Below are positions 2,008 through 7,492 of a stretch of 64,000 bases of DNA, piece by piece (position 1 is the stretch's first letter; each line of letters begins with the position of its first letter). The DNA comes from Synechococcales cyanobacterium VAR_4_metabat_354. GTDB lineage: Bacteria; Cyanobacteriota; Cyanobacteriia; Cyanobacteriales; Chamaesiphonaceae. Below the pieces are notes generated by a model. It was given only the letters and a program-made list of their open reading frames with translations. It ran no database searches and was not told the DNA's origin. Position numbers and translations under genes: made by a program. The stretch spans positions 30,188-94,187 of the forward strand of contig JANOQI010000011.1 of assembly GCA_031414775.1 (NCBI GenBank), given 5' to 3'.

Positions 2008-2136
2008 CATTATCCTAAATGTTTAGATAATGCTAAAATGTGTTTCGTTAAGTATGTGAATCAGGCAAAGTAGCTGTCACGAATGAAGCTCCGCTATGTT
2101 GGTTCTATTATTCTCAAAGACTATATTGTGATAAAG

Positions 2137-3846
2137 ATGAAAAATCACCTGTTGCCAACTACTCTCTTGGGTGCAACTGCCCTCGTTGGCTATGTCACAC
2201 CAGCAGCAGCTTTATCCCCAGTAGAAGTTCAGAGAATTGCTAAACAGCGTACCGTCCAGATCGAGGGATGTAACAAAGGCTCCGGCGTAATTATCCAAAA
2301 AAATGGTAATAATTACACTGTGCTGACGGCAGCCCATGTGGTCAGTGACAGTGGCTGCGAAGTCATAGCCCCAGACGATACTAGCTATCGGGTTACCAAG
2401 GTAAATATTTTCCCCAATCAAATCGATCTAGCCGTAGTTAACTTCACCAGTAATAAAAACTACCCAGTTGCTAAAACAATCCGCAATTCTGATCGGATCG
2501 AAGCAGGTGAAACTATTTATGTTTCTGGTTTTCCAGTCTCTACCGCTATTGCTAAATCCGTATTCGCCTTTGTCAAGGGAGATGTGGTCAGTAATGGTAC
2601 TAAGCAACAGGAAAAAGGCTACTCACTGATTTACAACAATAGTACTTTGCCCGGATACAGTGGCGGCCCAGTTTGGAGCGATCAGGGCGAATTGATCGCG
2701 ATCCACGGTCAAGGAGATATCGATACCAAATTACGAGATACGGTCAATGCCGATGTTCGGATTAAGACTGGATTCAATCTGGGGATTACCGTCAATACTT
2801 TTACCAAGCTTGCTTCTACAGCTGGAATCAATGGTTATGAGCCAGTGGCGATCGCGGCAAAACCCAAGCCGATCGATGATTTAATTGCTAGTGCCGTCCA
2901 AAAAGAACGCCAAGGTAACTATCGGGGTGTGTTAGTAGACATGGATCGAGCCATCACTCTGGATGCCAAGAATTCGCGACCTTACTACGGGCGGGGTCTA
3001 GCCAAGGCTCAGTTAGGAGATAACAAAGGAGCGATCGCAGACTATAACCGCGCTATTGCCCTCAATCCTAACTTTACTAACGCTTACCACAATCGTGGTT
3101 TTTCCAAGTCAGAGATCGGCGATGAAAAAGGAGCAATCAAAGACTACAACCGTGCGATCACGCTCAACCCGAATGATGACCAAGCCTACAATAATCGGGC
3201 TAGTGCTAAGTCGGAGGTCGGGGATAAAAAAGGAGCGATTAATGATTGGAATCGCGCCATCAACATCAATCCCAACTTTGCTTTTGCTTACCATAATCGA
3301 GCCATTGTGGAAGCGCGGCTAGGGAATTTAAAAAAAGCCCAAAATGATTGGAACCGCGCTCTTCAGATCAATCCTCAGTTAGCGCCAGCCTATAGAAACC
3401 GTGGCAATATCAAATCTTTATTTGGAGATGCCAGAGGAGCTATCCAAGACTACAATCGGGCTATTTTTCTCAACCCTAATGATGCTCAAGCTTTCTACAA
3501 CCGTGCTCATACCGAATCTGGGTTAGGCAATAAAAAGAAGGCAGTTGAAGACTATAACCGCGCGATCAACCTCTATCCCAACGATTTTCAATCGTACTAC
3601 AATCGGGGCATTACCAAATTTGAGTTAGGAAATCGTCAGGCCGCCATAGAAGACTACACCCGCGCCATCGCTATTAATCCAGGCTTTTCCTATGCCTACC
3701 ATAACCGTGGGACTGTCAAATCTGCTTTAGGCGACAAGGCCGGGGCACTCCTCGACTGGAGAAAAGCCGCCGAAATATTTAATCAACAAGGACAAGTAGC
3801 TAATTATCGCAAGTCGATGTCAGCGATCGAACGCCTGGGTTCCTAA
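2137..3846 (+). CDS. secreted trypsin-like serine protease with C-terminal TPR repeats
   Basis: Signal peptide from ATG 2137; catalytic triad motifs LTAAHVV, DLAVV and GYSGGP; about 8-9 TPR units (AYxNRG...DYNRAI). Confidence 0.9.
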   Translation: MKNHLLPTTLLGATALVGYVTPAAALSPVEVQRIAKQRTVQIEGCNKGSGVIIQKNGNNYTVLTAAHVVSDSGCEVIAPDDTSYRVTKVNIFPNQIDLAVVNFTSNKNYPVAKTIRNSDRIEAGETIYVSGFPVSTAIAKSVFAFVKGDVVSNGTKQQEKGYSLIYNNSTLPGYSGGPVWSDQGELIAIHGQGDIDTKLRDTVNADVRIKTGFNLGITVNTFTKLASTAGINGYEPVAIAAKPKPIDDLIASAVQKERQGNYRGVLVDMDRAITLDAKNSRPYYGRGLAKAQLGDNKGAIADYNRAIALNPNFTNAYHNRGFSKSEIGDEKGAIKDYNRAITLNPNDDQAYNNRASAKSEVGDKKGAINDWNRAININPNFAFAYHNRAIVEARLGNLKKAQNDWNRALQINPQLAPAYRNRGNIKSLFGDARGAIQDYNRAIFLNPNDAQAFYNRAHTESGLGNKKKAVEDYNRAINLYPNDFQSYYNRGITKFELGNRQAAIEDYTRAIAINPGFSYAYHNRGTVKSALGDKAGALLDWRKAAEIFNQQGQVANYRKSMSAIERLGS

Positions 3847-3910: not shown

Positions 3911-3938
3911 TTGCCACCACCATTAAATTTGTTATGAT
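3911..3938 (+). promoter_or_regulatory. sigma70-type promoter with extended -10 for the small basic ORF
   Basis: TTGCCA (3911-3916), 16 nt, TATGAT (3933-3938), preceded by TG at 3930-3931. Confidence 0.65.
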
Positions 3939-3973
3939 CAGCAACAGTAGTTCATAAACTCAACCCAAGAACA

Positions 3974-4183
3974 ATGGCTAGAATGCTTAAGCGCTGGGAG
4001 TCACCGCGCAAAGAAGGTCGCAACGACAAAGGCAAAGGCGGCTCCGCCCGTCAACGACAGGTTAAAAAACAAATGAAAATGCTAAGGAAACGCCTGAAAG
4101 ACCAAGGCCAATCCAGTAATCAGGGCAACAGCCCCCAGGGAGAGTTCTACACTCTCCCTTTTTTTTTGGACAATTTGCTGTAG
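3974..4183 (+). CDS. small basic protein, candidate ArfA/BrfA-like alternative ribosome-rescue factor
   Basis: 69 aa; 17 Lys/Arg in the first 42 residues; DKGKGGS motif; hydrophobic tail FYTLPFFLDNLL; own promoter; terminator inside the CDS. The coding call is fairly secure; the function is inferred. Confidence 0.7.
   Translation: MARMLKRWESPRKEGRNDKGKGGSARQRQVKKQMKMLRKRLKDQGQSSNQGNSPQGEFYTLPFFLDNLL
4137..4167 (+). terminator. intrinsic terminator lying inside ORF 3974-4183, upstream of its stop codon
   Basis: AGGGAGAGT-TCTAC-ACTCTCCCT perfect 9-bp stem followed by 8 more T (4160-4167); the stop TAG is at 4181-4183. Confidence 0.88.
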
Positions 4184-4221: not shown

Positions 4222-5490
4222 ATGGCTCAATGGGATTTACGCAGCCTCTGGCAAACCTTGGTCTACTTTGAGGCCGTGCCGCTGCTCAAACAACTTCACC
4301 AGCTACAAGGACGAGCAATAGCCCCTAACCATAATTTTATGAATCAAGCAATTTTGGTAATTGGTGGGGTCGATCATCTCAGTCAACGAGTCGTTAAACA
4401 GCTGTGGCAAAAAGGCTATCATCCCTGTCTATTGGTACCTGCCGCTGAGCTATCGATCGCTCACCAACTTTTCCCTCAAGGCGTAGAAATTGTCGGCGGT
4501 GCTCTGAGCAGTATCCCCACAACTGTCTGGCAGCAAGTGAGAGCGGTCATCTATTGCCCCGCAAGTGTTAACCAACCAGAACTGGATGCCCTAGTCCAAC
4601 TTACCAATCAGCATTTGCCTACCAGTAGCGATTTAGAACTTTTTGACTTCACCACAGCACAGACACCAGTGGCTCAAACTTGGGGGGCGGTGGATGATGT
4701 GGTAATGGGTGGGGTTAGTGCCAGTGGTCTGCAAAGTTCGACTAACTGTGCGCTGTTCACCGGCAATATCTCTACTGAAAACTCCGGCGGTTTTGCCTCG
4801 ATTCGGACTCGTAACTTTGAGCCAGCTCTAGATTTGAGCAACTATCAAGGGATTTCTTTACGGGTACGCGGTGATGGTAAACGCTACAAATTATTTTTAC
4901 GCCCCAGCGAGCAGTGGGATGGTTTGGGCTATGCCTATTCCTTTGACACTAACAGCAGTATGGGCAACATCACCAATTTGCGAATTCCCTTTAGCAATTT
5001 AGTGCCTGTGATGCGAGCTAAGACGGTGCCCGATGCTCCTCCGATCGATCCCAGTAAAATTTCGGCTCTCCAAATCATGCTCAGCAAGTTTGAGTATGAT
5101 GGCAACCTCAATCCCAATTTTCGAGCCGGTGATTTTGCCTTGGAATTATTCTCGATCGGAGCTTATGGCGATCGGATTCTGCCCCAACTGATTGTGGTAG
5201 CTCCCTTGACCACCACCACTGGCAACGTTACTCAGCCTCTGGCTGGTAGCTTTAAGCCTTACACCACTTTGCAAATGGGTGTAGTAGTAGACCGCCCTGG
5301 TGGTCAGAATTTAGAGTTTGACTTACAAAAACTATCCAATGGCTCAGTGAGCAGTGAAGATCTGGCCGAACTTTGCGTGCAGTTACTCAATATTCCCACC
5401 GCCTGCAATCAAACTATTAATGTTCAAGAAATTGGCCAGAGAGGGGTTAATACTTGGTCGAACCTGGTAGAAAAAGCTGTCCAATCCTAA
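4222..5490 (+). CDS. CIA30 (complex I intermediate-associated protein 30) domain protein with a degenerate NAD(P)-binding fold
   Basis: WGAVDDVVMGGVS, STENSGGFASIRTRN and LRVRGDGKRYK motifs. Confidence 0.88.
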   Translation: MAQWDLRSLWQTLVYFEAVPLLKQLHQLQGRAIAPNHNFMNQAILVIGGVDHLSQRVVKQLWQKGYHPCLLVPAAELSIAHQLFPQGVEIVGGALSSIPTTVWQQVRAVIYCPASVNQPELDALVQLTNQHLPTSSDLELFDFTTAQTPVAQTWGAVDDVVMGGVSASGLQSSTNCALFTGNISTENSGGFASIRTRNFEPALDLSNYQGISLRVRGDGKRYKLFLRPSEQWDGLGYAYSFDTNSSMGNITNLRIPFSNLVPVMRAKTVPDAPPIDPSKISALQIMLSKFEYDGNLNPNFRAGDFALELFSIGAYGDRILPQLIVVAPLTTTTGNVTQPLAGSFKPYTTLQMGVVVDRPGGQNLEFDLQKLSNGSVSSEDLAELCVQLLNIPTACNQTINVQEIGQRGVNTWSNLVEKAVQS

Positions 5491-5496
5491 AAGACT

Positions 5497-5949
5497 ATGG
5501 CCAAGCAGGTTTTGGAACAATCTATCCAAATTAACGCCAGCGCCGTGATGGTCGATCGATGTATCACGGCACTAGATTTGCAACGACGGTGGCGGAATGG
5601 TAGCTGTGAAGCAATTGGCGAATGGAGCGTGGCGGTGGGTAGCTATAGCCGTTTAATAATAAAAATGCCTTTGTTTCAATTCAGTTTAAGTAGAATTGTA
5701 GTGATCAGAGAACCGGGACTAGTGGTATGGGGATTTAACGGATTGCTGACTGGACGAGATCGGTGGGAATGTCGCCCCAATGAACGCGGCACGCTGGTAG
5801 TGAATCGCTGGGAAATACAAGCTAGTAATGCGATCGGCTGGGGCTGGCAGCGCTTCAACCGTAAATGGACAACTGATGAGATGGCGGCGCAGTTAGTGCG
5901 CTTGAAATATGTGGCGGAAGAGCTGCACTATCTATCGGGGTTCCAATAA
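5497..5949 (+). CDS. SRPBCC/polyketide-cyclase-like protein
   Basis: EQSIQINASA...VDRCIT, REPGLVVWGF and GRDRWEC pattern of the cyanobacterial SRPBCC family. Confidence 0.7.
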   Translation: MAKQVLEQSIQINASAVMVDRCITALDLQRRWRNGSCEAIGEWSVAVGSYSRLIIKMPLFQFSLSRIVVIREPGLVVWGFNGLLTGRDRWECRPNERGTLVVNRWEIQASNAIGWGWQRFNRKWTTDEMAAQLVRLKYVAEELHYLSGFQ

Positions 5950-6025: not shown

Positions 6026-7492
6026 ATGTTCCAAATATCTGAAAAAGAAATTAAAGCCAGATTGCAGTTTGACAATCCGTGGTGGGAAGACAGTCAGATT
6101 GACCCCCGCTTTGATCAAATGCGCCATCGTCATTACTTTGAGAGCTTCTTTGAATTGGTGAGTGATCGATCGATTAACCGCGCCATTGTCCTGATGGGAC
6201 CAAGAAGAGTCGGTAAAACAGTGATGATCTACCACGCTGTAAAAAAGTTGATCGGTCAAGGGATCGCACCGCACCACATTTTGTATTTATCTCTAGAAAC
6301 TCCGCTCTACACTGATTTACGTCTTGATCAGTTACTCACATTTTTTAGTGAGCTACACGAACACAATCGTCAAAGTAATCTCATAGTTTTTTTCGACGAG
6401 GTACAATATCTCAAAAATTGGGAAGTACACTTGAAATCTTTAGTGGATTCTTATCCCCAGTATCGATTTGTAGTAACAGGTTCGGCGGCGGCAGCGCTAC
6501 GACTCAAAAGTCAGGAATCAGGCGCTGGCAGATTTTCTGATTTTTTACTGCCGCCATTGACCTTTGCTGAATATTTAAGCTTTATCGATCGAGAAGACGA
6601 ACTGATCATTCAGCACAACGATCAATACGTTGCTACTAATATTACAGAATTAAATCAAGAATTCATCAACTATCTAAATTTTGGGGGGTATCCCGAAGCG
6701 GTATTATCGCCGACTGTTCAAGGCAGCAGTTCCAGGTTTATTAAAAGTGACATCATCGACAAAGTACTACTGCGCGATCTGCCCAGTTTATATGGAATTA
6801 GTGACATTCAAGAACTCAATCGCTTATTTACAACCTTGGCTTACAACACCGGTAATGAAGTCAGTTTAGATAATTTATCTAAATCTTCTGGGGTAGGGAA
6901 GACCACTTTAAAGCGATATATCGAGTATTTAGAAGCAGCTTTTTTGGTGCGTCGCATTTATCGCATCGATGATTCCGCTAAACGGTTCCAACGGGCGACT
7001 TCCTTCAAAGTATATTTGACCAACCCTTCTATGAGAGCCGCTCTTTTTGGCTATGTGGACGAAAACAGCCCAGCAACTGGAGCCTTGGCTGAAACGGCAA
7101 TTTTTAGTCAGTGGTTCCATAGCGCCGATATTAGTCAACTACATTATGCCCGCTGGAAAAGCGGCGAGGTAGACTTAGTAGCCTTGGATAAGCTCGATCA
7201 AAAACCTTGGTGGTGTGTAGAAATCAAATGGTCAGATCGAGTCGTTCAAGATCATCAAGAAATTGCTGGACTAATTAAGTTTGCTAAAGACCATCACTTT
7301 TCCGAACCCCAGTTGGTTACGACCAAAACCATCACTCATCAATTTCCAGTCCAGGGAATTGAAATTAGGTTTAAGCCCAGTGCGGAGCAAGTCTATACTT
7401 TAGGGAAAAATATTGTGCTTAGTTTACAGAAAAATCATCAAGAATTAACCGGATCTCATCAAGGGATGGATTTGGTCAGGAATGATTTTTAA
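6026..7492 (+). CDS. AAA+ ATPase (AAA_14/DUF4143-type) with a C-terminal PD-(D/E)xK-like motif
   Basis: Walker A GPRRVGKT, Walker B VFFDEVQ, VTGS, GGYPE, and EVDLV...VEIKW near the C-terminus. Confidence 0.85.
   Translation: MFQISEKEIKARLQFDNPWWEDSQIDPRFDQMRHRHYFESFFELVSDRSINRAIVLMGPRRVGKTVMIYHAVKKLIGQGIAPHHILYLSLETPLYTDLRLDQLLTFFSELHEHNRQSNLIVFFDEVQYLKNWEVHLKSLVDSYPQYRFVVTGSAAAALRLKSQESGAGRFSDFLLPPLTFAEYLSFIDREDELIIQHNDQYVATNITELNQEFINYLNFGGYPEAVLSPTVQGSSSRFIKSDIIDKVLLRDLPSLYGISDIQELNRLFTTLAYNTGNEVSLDNLSKSSGVGKTTLKRYIEYLEAAFLVRRIYRIDDSAKRFQRATSFKVYLTNPSMRAALFGYVDENSPATGALAETAIFSQWFHSADISQLHYARWKSGEVDLVALDKLDQKPWWCVEIKWSDRVVQDHQEIAGLIKFAKDHHFSEPQLVTTKTITHQFPVQGIEIRFKPSAEQVYTLGKNIVLSLQKNHQELTGSHQGMDLVRNDF

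Follow-up and report, generated by a model that had tools for sequence, protein, structure and literature searches.

A conserved small-protein family of oxygenic cyanobacteria with a predicted stop-less message, a candidate tmRNA-gated ribosome-rescue factor

Introduction

The closest described systems, as set out in the accessible parts of the papers cited here, include small ribosome-rescue factors whose own messages lack a stop codon. ArfA (YhdL, PF03889) of the beta- and gammaproteobacteria is encoded by a non-stop mRNA truncated at a hairpin, with a hydrophobic tail that is the translated hairpin; E. coli arfA additionally uses RNase III cleavage, and its hydrophobic tail is unstable (PMC8012679). 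BrfA (YqkK) of Bacillus subtilis, which is RF2-dependent, has an intrinsic terminator in its coding sequence before the stop codon, and its ORF of ~70 aa gives a truncated, basic product without GGQ that is active at ~62 aa (PMC6881298, PMC8012679). Tagging and destruction by tmRNA-SmpB of the product of the stop-less mRNA have been demonstrated both for brfA (PMC6881298) and for arfA (PMC8012679), and the two proteins have in common a C-terminal KH motif that contacts 16S U534 (PMC6881298, PMC8012679). ArfT of Francisella, ~40 aa in functional size, works with RF1 or RF2 and, in the available part of its description, is under no control by termination or RNase III; the channel-binding motifs are KGKGS in ArfA and KKGGS, near the C-terminus, in ArfT (PMC6299226). 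ArfB (NF006718) carries a GGQ peptidyl-tRNA hydrolase domain. According to a review, further small rescue factors should exist that homology cannot find (PMC8012679).

A first-pass annotation of a cyanobacterial locus proposed a rescue factor of this kind, expressed from a built-in non-stop mRNA. Here we compare the locus with its homologues and with the known systems, and describe the family to which it belongs, which is real, conserved and uncatalogued.

Results

A small basic gene with a predicted terminator ahead of its stop codon

The gene lies on the forward strand of a 64,000-nucleotide stretch of DNA, analysed as a whole and called the window here, between a trypsin-TPR gene (ending at 3846) and a co-directional CIA30-domain gene (starting at 4222), the latter adjoining the family only in the closest relatives. 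The neighbours in the window are ordinary: an ammonium transporter (442-1869), the trypsin-TPR protein (2083-3846), the CIA30-domain protein (4222-5490), a polyketide-cyclase-like protein (5497-5949) and an AAA_14/DUF4143 ATPase (6026-7492). The features of the locus are as follows.

3911..3916, + strand: -35-like hexamer TTGCCA, from a local scan; weak alone
3930..3938, + strand: extended -10 element TG.TATGAT, from a local scan and homologous loci
3974..4183, + strand: ORF as it would be annotated, 69 codons and a TAG stop (4181-4183); the mRNA, if terminated as predicted, would encode only ~64 residues and no stop
3974..4099, + strand: conserved basic core, residues 1-42, LKRWESPR..GRN.KGKGGSAR.RQ..K....L...L, from invariant columns and pN/pS
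4028..4045, + strand: KGKGGS motif, residues 19-24, a candidate mRNA-channel-binding segment by analogy with the ArfA and ArfT motifs; unique in the host
4037..4102, + strand: predicted basic alpha-helix, residues 22-43 (AlphaFold2)
4100..4136, + strand: variable hydrophilic linker without in-frame stops, from comparison of loci
4137..4159, + strand: terminator stem-loop within the coding sequence; perfect 9-bp stem, 5 G-C pairs, 5-nt loop
4160..4167, + strand: U-tract, 8 T; predicted 3' end near 4165-4167
4168..4183, + strand: remainder of the frame and stop codon, with no selection evident (random stop distance), reached only by read-through transcripts

The 3' end was placed by the usual 7-9 nt rule for terminators. 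The hairpin and U-tract (4137-4167) occupy codons 55-65 and end ~14 nt ahead of the stop, which starts at 4181; the fold z-score of the hairpin is -2.2. Upstream, the -35-like hexamer and the extended -10 are spaced by 16 nt, and transcription is predicted to start near 3945, giving a leader of ~30 nt. The protein has 17 K/R in residues 1-42 of its 69, with a pI of ~11.8 for residues 1-44, and the pattern KGKGG?S occurs once among 11,854 host ATG-ORFs, in this ORF. The first-pass annotation had reported the ORF and its length, the 17 basic residues, the motif, the extended -10, the perfect stem and T-run and their distance from the stop codon, and all of these are confirmed in the sequence. 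Public RNA contigs (assembled from one metatranscriptome of low share and from three runs of unspecified kind) place related-strain pieces on 3974-4101; such contigs carry no end, strand or level.

Taken locally, neither signal stands out. Between 2500 and 6000 in the window the scan counts 4 sites of each kind, where shuffled sequence gives 5.2 promoter-like and 3.6 terminator-like ones; neither count is above chance, and the case therefore rests on comparison across loci. Of 174 homologous loci, 87 have an extended -10 no more than 70 nt upstream of the start (median 34 nt), where shuffles give 14.5, and a hairpin of the same kind is present in the last 100 nt of only 51/2642 ordinary host gene proxies as against 170/177 family loci. 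By this comparison, conservation raises both the predicted promoter and the predicted terminator above chance.

Two features had been missed in the first-pass annotation: a minority of terminator-less forms with a stop, described below, and a tRNA-Leu(CAA) that frequently lies directly upstream. The tRNA is found on the same strand, at most 400 nt upstream, in 42/174 loci (L019, L064, L096, L139, L147 and others). As it often lies ~20-30 nt before the start codon, co-transcription is suggested, with the mRNA freed by 3' processing of the tRNA.

The non-stop layout is kept across the family

A terminator was scored as a G-C-closed stem of at least 6 bp with dG <= -7 kcal/mol, followed by at least 6 T in the next 9 nt, and the 3' end was assumed to lie 8 nt beyond the last G-C pair. 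In a first set of 177 loci (200 fetched, minus 22 duplicates and 1 weak match), 170 carry a terminator and 7 lack one by this rule. In 167 of the 170 the frame is open up to the assumed end, and in the other 3 a stop falls inside the U-tract. A second set of 80 loci was drawn mostly from other orders, about a dozen being picked for short open frames, and 4 of its loci repeat the first set; 68 of the 80 are non-stop, 9 lack a terminator, 2 are pseudogenes whose core is interrupted by a stop, and in 1 the stop falls within the U-tract. Over both sets the terminator precedes any in-frame stop in 231 of 253 distinct loci, which strongly supports the built-in non-stop design claimed at the outset; the loci are related and not independent samples, so that these counts overstate formal significance, though the pattern spans many families. 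The 16 loci without a terminator by rule comprise 5 with a weaker or irregular hairpin, 1 cut by a contig end, 2 with neither and 8 short stop-bearing forms. The first-pass annotation would have been refuted had homologues generally stopped upstream of the hairpin, and they do not.

The linker between core and stem is highly variable and 4-98 nt long. In-frame stops are present in 0 of 163 linkers, against 73.6 expected from shuffles, and in the second set in 1 of 64, against 26.5 expected, the single case being a pseudogene; in the other two frames, linker stops occur in 34/170 and 144/170 loci. Relative to the core, the stem ends in any of the three frames (48/51/71), so that the hydrophobic tail is not a conserved peptide, in agreement with the earlier suggestion that it is simply the translated terminator. 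Past the terminator, the distance to the first in-frame stop shows no difference from that in the other two frames (p=0.24). The predicted non-stop product spans 50-84 aa (quartiles 62-67), while the annotated ORFs scatter over 58-159 aa. The stop-free linker, the hairpin read in three frames and the random later stop together argue that the message is built to be stop-less, and we have little doubt, judging from these comparisons, that this design is under selection. In four loci (L017, L023, L151, L272) the U-tract contains a TAA 5 nt downstream of the final G-C pair; a stop at the extreme 3' end of the mRNA makes these borderline non-stop cases.

The hairpins themselves are diverse, with 140 distinct sequences in 169 loci, and many carry an A-run on the 5' side. 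RNAalifold found no common structure for 45 of them, as their purine runs slip out of register. In an arm-swap test, used instead, the two arms of a locus paired better with each other than with the average foreign arm in 151/156 loci. The strict U-tract and G-C-rich stem are conserved in the family, and the U-tract always lies on the strand of the gene.

These data bear on whether the ORF might be a leader-peptide attenuator for the downstream gene, or an ordinary small gene overlapped by the terminator of a convergent neighbour. In favour of these readings are the convergent gene downstream in 82/167 loci, the 5'-side A-runs of many hairpins and, in the window, the co-directional neighbour beginning at 4222. 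Against this, the downstream genes are unconserved (86 clusters in 157 loci; 75 co-directional, 82 convergent), and the terminator-before-stop layout is kept in 75/75 loci with a co-directional downstream gene, which together argue against an attenuator or a borrowed terminator; the constant strand of the U-tract, the random position of the stop and the conservation of the core as protein stand against it as well. We regard this explanation as very improbable and largely refuted.

Termination in vivo is a further question. In Synechococcus elongatus, terminators built of a hairpin and a U-tract are active both in vivo and in vitro, according to the available part of one study (PMC12642595). 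In E. coli, a terminator that lies over 100 nt inside a gene can be suppressed by translating ribosomes (PMC4824070, in the part covered). Across the family the stem starts ~160 nt into the gene (quartiles 158-170), near the point where the first ribosome is thought to reach the polymerase, and only 23/191 downstream terminators of the host lie within 12 nt of a stop, most lying more than 20 nt past stops. Because of this position of the stem and this habit of host terminators, termination may be partial. Taken to the extreme, trailing ribosomes would melt the hairpin and no termination would occur, the element serving instead in RNase cleavage or stability, or the full-length protein carrying a hydrophobic degron tail; the E. 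coli suppression of late intragenic terminators, the avoidance by host terminators of the 12 nt after stops and the RNase III cleavage and unstable tail of E. coli arfA (PMC8012679) are compatible with it. The conserved U-tract and G-C-rich stem count against it, as does a tail that is read in three frames and is random in length, and hairpin cleavage would still yield a non-stop mRNA. We give this extreme case hardly any credence.

Distribution, conservation and variant forms

The ORF protein is unmatched in Pfam and NCBIfam, as are 30 members in Pfam. Relatives number 1073 at E<=0.01, and the named ones among the 120 matches listed are hypothetical or uncharacterised proteins; a profile search of 1.84 billion representatives gave 458 matches, 394 of them at E<=1e-10, of which the best 150 were listed, the weak tail lying beyond these. 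The family is present in 37/41 related genomes and in 96 of 301 genomes from a sample of the phylum, every one of them in the class of the host; across that class it is found in 186/301 genomes at E<=0.05, a few of them borderline. It is essentially not found in the small-genome strains of f32 (0/17, and 1/33 at E 0.049). Nearly every genome has one match, and the family was found only in oxygenic cyanobacteria, with named records from, for example, Chamaesiphon, Nostoc, Leptolyngbya and Coleofasciculus. The ESM Atlas returned only unnamed cyanobacterial clusters and no usable match among named ones, and the phages and plasmids searched gave no match.

A literature search, covering mainly open papers without their supplements, found no description of the family, in keeping with the earlier statement that no characterised cyanobacterial factor of such a type was known. 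Term look-up in the available parts of a Synechocystis ribosome-profiling preprint and of a heterocyst sRNA paper did not return it, and it is not mentioned in the parts covered of PMC6514570; the tables of the former two and of a Rend-seq preprint may list the transcript unrecognised.

Thirty diverse members share 14 invariant columns, and residues 5-41 are conserved as protein. Over 168 loci the core has a pS of 0.80 and a pN of 0.14 (pN/pS ~0.17); by these measures the basic core is under purifying selection. KG[KR]GG[SAT] is conserved in the family, one Gly longer than the KGKGS of ArfA. In the f33 subfamily (L327-L329, L331, L333, L335), GKGG is replaced by SK/SR-Q/R-AS and some members have a one-residue insertion before RN; the exact KGKGGS motif carries less weight because f33 diverges there yet keeps the terminator-before-stop layout.

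Variants of the gene are of several kinds. L316 (G370) and L336 (G440) have a stop within the conserved core and retain the terminator, and are probable pseudogenes. Longer forms account for 27 matches; none of the 12 scanned has a Pfam domain, and the 6 that were read resemble read-through or upstream extensions. P0381, on a single contig, is a 287-aa protein with the family core fused behind an upstream ORF, probably through a lost stop or an assembly error.

Eight loci (L142, L158, L252, L269, L282, L310, L330, L334), four of them in one family, f39, encode short forms of ~43-52 aa with a normal stop 2-11 codons past the core and no terminator. They show that ~43-52 residues can be the whole protein and that gating can be lost. 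As a marker of tmRNA loss these forms were rejected, tmRNA and SmpB being intact in 7/7 genomes tested (G351 was outside the seven). Since they occur in several lineages with tmRNA and SmpB intact where tested, gating is not indispensable, and the non-stop end could be read as a turnover or dose-limiting device, keeping a toxic or potent basic peptide low by tagging, or the stop as simply dispensable, in either case with no sensing of trans-translation. We consider this improbable: neutrality cannot purge stops from a fast-evolving linker (0 against 73.6 expected), and the promoter, which is near consensus, would set the dose more cheaply.

Predicted structure and comparison with known factors

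AlphaFold2, run with a 30-row alignment (mean pLDDT 74.7), predicts a confident helix at residues 22-43, with residues 1-21 flexible and largely without regular structure; the free model contains no strand, whereas ArfA and BrfA add a beta-strand to domain 2/4 of RF2 and hydrolyse peptidyl-tRNA in an RF2-dependent way. With the 44-residue model, Foldseek gave no match and VIA-align a best Z of 3.6 to generic helices only, which is uninformative. A complex prediction with domains 2-4 of host RF2 scored 0.00 against a mark of 0.32, its controls not having folded, and speaks neither for nor against binding.

Sequence comparison sets the family apart from the described factors. In hhalign against E. 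coli ArfA the probability is 1.8%, the sole likeness being a 13-residue patch around N.KGKG (EGRNDKGKGGSAR against VEKNKKGKGSYMR), and PF03889 is unmatched by the ORF protein, by 30 members and by the host genome, the E. coli control being positive; the likeness to ArfA is thus as limited beyond size, charge and the short motif as had first been judged by eye. A search of the PDB by family profile found no chain below E 0.25, and likeness to BrfA by sequence was judged only in this way, BrfA being assumed to be among the chains from its cryo-EM paper. Host SmpB and ArfB show no homology to the family profile, with scores below that of ArfA. In the 30-member core alignment, both GGQ and a KH motif after KGKGGS are absent, which separates the family from ArfB on the one hand and from ArfA and BrfA on the other.

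The likenesses are those of expression and composition. With BrfA the family shares the predicted terminator in the coding sequence before the stop, an ORF of about the same length and truncated product, and a basic protein without GGQ; with ArfA, it shares the predicted hairpin-truncated non-stop mRNA and the hydrophobic tail translated from the hairpin, E. coli arfA having RNase III cleavage in addition. BrfA is from a different phylum, and its two helices are N-terminal and its basic tail is extended, whereas in the family model the N-terminus is flexible and the single helix C-terminal; in both ArfA and BrfA helices precede the channel-binding tails, whereas the predicted helix of the family comes after the Gly/Lys motif. 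ArfT, compared by description only, is alike in functional size and in its KKGGS-type motif, and the 43-52-aa stop-bearing forms resemble its unregulated layout, whereas most family members are non-stop. As a string, KGKGGS contains parts of both the ArfA and the ArfT motif and appears intermediate between the two. Another comparison is the cyanobacteria-specific protein cS24 (Ssr3189, COG5794), which is likewise small and basic with one helix, and is ribosome-associated; in the available part of its description it is abundant, occurs in picocyanobacteria and has K9, R14 and N15 in an N-terminal helix (PMC13640635), a pattern absent from the family. The host has a 56-aa basic ORF with K9, R14 and N15 (G000:C20, about 22502, + strand), probably its cS24/Ssr3189 (COG5794) orthologue. 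The family is BrfA-like in its expression logic but is no member of ArfA, ArfT, ArfB or cS24/COG5794.

Rescue machinery of the host and of cyanobacteria

The host genome encodes tmRNA, SmpB, RF1, RF2 and, as a separate gene, ArfB; ArfA was not found in it. Its prfB frame (L224, G000:C26:45793-46824, - strand) has no in-frame start near the N-terminus, which we take to be the expected result of a programmed +1 frameshift. Among 144 genomes of the class, 47 carry both the gene and ArfB, 49 the gene only, 25 ArfB only and 23 neither. Mutual exclusion with ArfB was accordingly rejected, with both present in 47/144 and neither in 23/144. The 23 oxygenic cyanobacterial genomes without the gene and without ArfB over the cut-off are candidates for reliance on RQC or on yet another factor. 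In a survey of 162 cyanobacterial genomes, as far as its available part shows, RqcH was found in 161, ArfB in 90 and ArfA in none (PMC11633108), and the Synechocystis ssrA null is viable (cited in PMC5222879); given RqcH in 161/162 and ArfB in 90/162 genomes, viability without tmRNA does not need the gene.

Discussion

The reading of the family that we favour is as follows. A short transcript would start at the extended -10 promoter or, in some lineages, arrive as run-on from tRNA-Leu(CAA), and would end at the in-frame intrinsic terminator. The ribosome would run off after ~64 codons, and tmRNA-SmpB, as for ArfA and BrfA, would tag the chain for destruction. When trans-translation is lost or saturated, untagged chains would be released by another route and accumulate, as ArfA and BrfA do when trans-translation fails. 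By analogy, the KGKGGS segment and the basic helix 22-43 would then bind in the mRNA channel left empty in non-stop ribosomes, and a release factor, RF2 being the likeliest, would be recruited by the invariant LKxWESPR at the N-terminus to hydrolyse peptidyl-tRNA without a stop codon.

Confidence is not equal along this chain. Reasoning from the layout, the stop-less message is very probably tmRNA-gated, and that the mRNA lacks a stop and its product is tagged and destroyed by tmRNA-SmpB we hold with high confidence. The rescue function is proposed on the non-stop layout, the size, the charge and a KGKGGS motif that echoes KGKGS of ArfA and KKGGS of ArfT, and on these analogies it is probable. 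Channel binding together with release-factor recruitment is the weakest step, and we have moderate confidence that the accumulated peptide would rescue non-stop ribosomes by recruiting a release factor, probably RF2. The best overall reading, to which we assign a probability of roughly 0.62, is an independently evolved, release-factor-recruiting, tmRNA-gated back-up rescue factor of cyanobacteria, separate from ArfA and BrfA.

A non-stop layout shows gating, not the job, and the peptide could be a tmRNA-gated ribosome- or RNA-binding stress protein that recruits no release factor and instead, for example, brings about hibernation or shut-down, assists MutS2/RqcH splitting or signals the load on trans-translation. 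Its architecture unlike that of ArfA and BrfA, the absence of KH, the free co-occurrence of the gene with ArfB and the existence of other lineage-specific small basic ribosome-associated proteins in cyanobacteria, such as cS24/Ssr3189 (PMC13640635), are all consistent with this. Yet arfA and brfA, the two described genes with a built-in non-stop design in the literature covered, both encode rescue factors, and the Gly/Lys motif resembles those described as channel-binding in ArfA and ArfT; we consider the stress-protein alternative unlikely. Another reading that we hold unlikely is a class-wide, trans-translation-gated ribosome factor of new architecture, in which the single basic C-terminal helix would plug the empty mRNA channel, as the tails of SmpB and ArfB do, and the invariant LKxWESPR-GRN head would engage RF1, the MutS2/RqcH splitting route or no partner, and not RF2 alone. 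The short stop-bearing forms would then be natural constitutive alleles, the gate having been switched off repeatedly in evolution.

Whatever its partner, the family carries a warning for annotation, since its 58-159-aa 'hypothetical proteins' have meaningless tails. The active unit would be a synthesisable 46-residue peptide with natural stop-bearing variants. The family supplies a concrete rescue-factor candidate across most oxygenic cyanobacteria, including 49 sampled genomes without ArfB over the cut-off. If the protein does rescue ribosomes, a small release-factor-recruiting factor would have been invented independently once more, and tmRNA-gated expression would have been arrived at convergently in a third known case.
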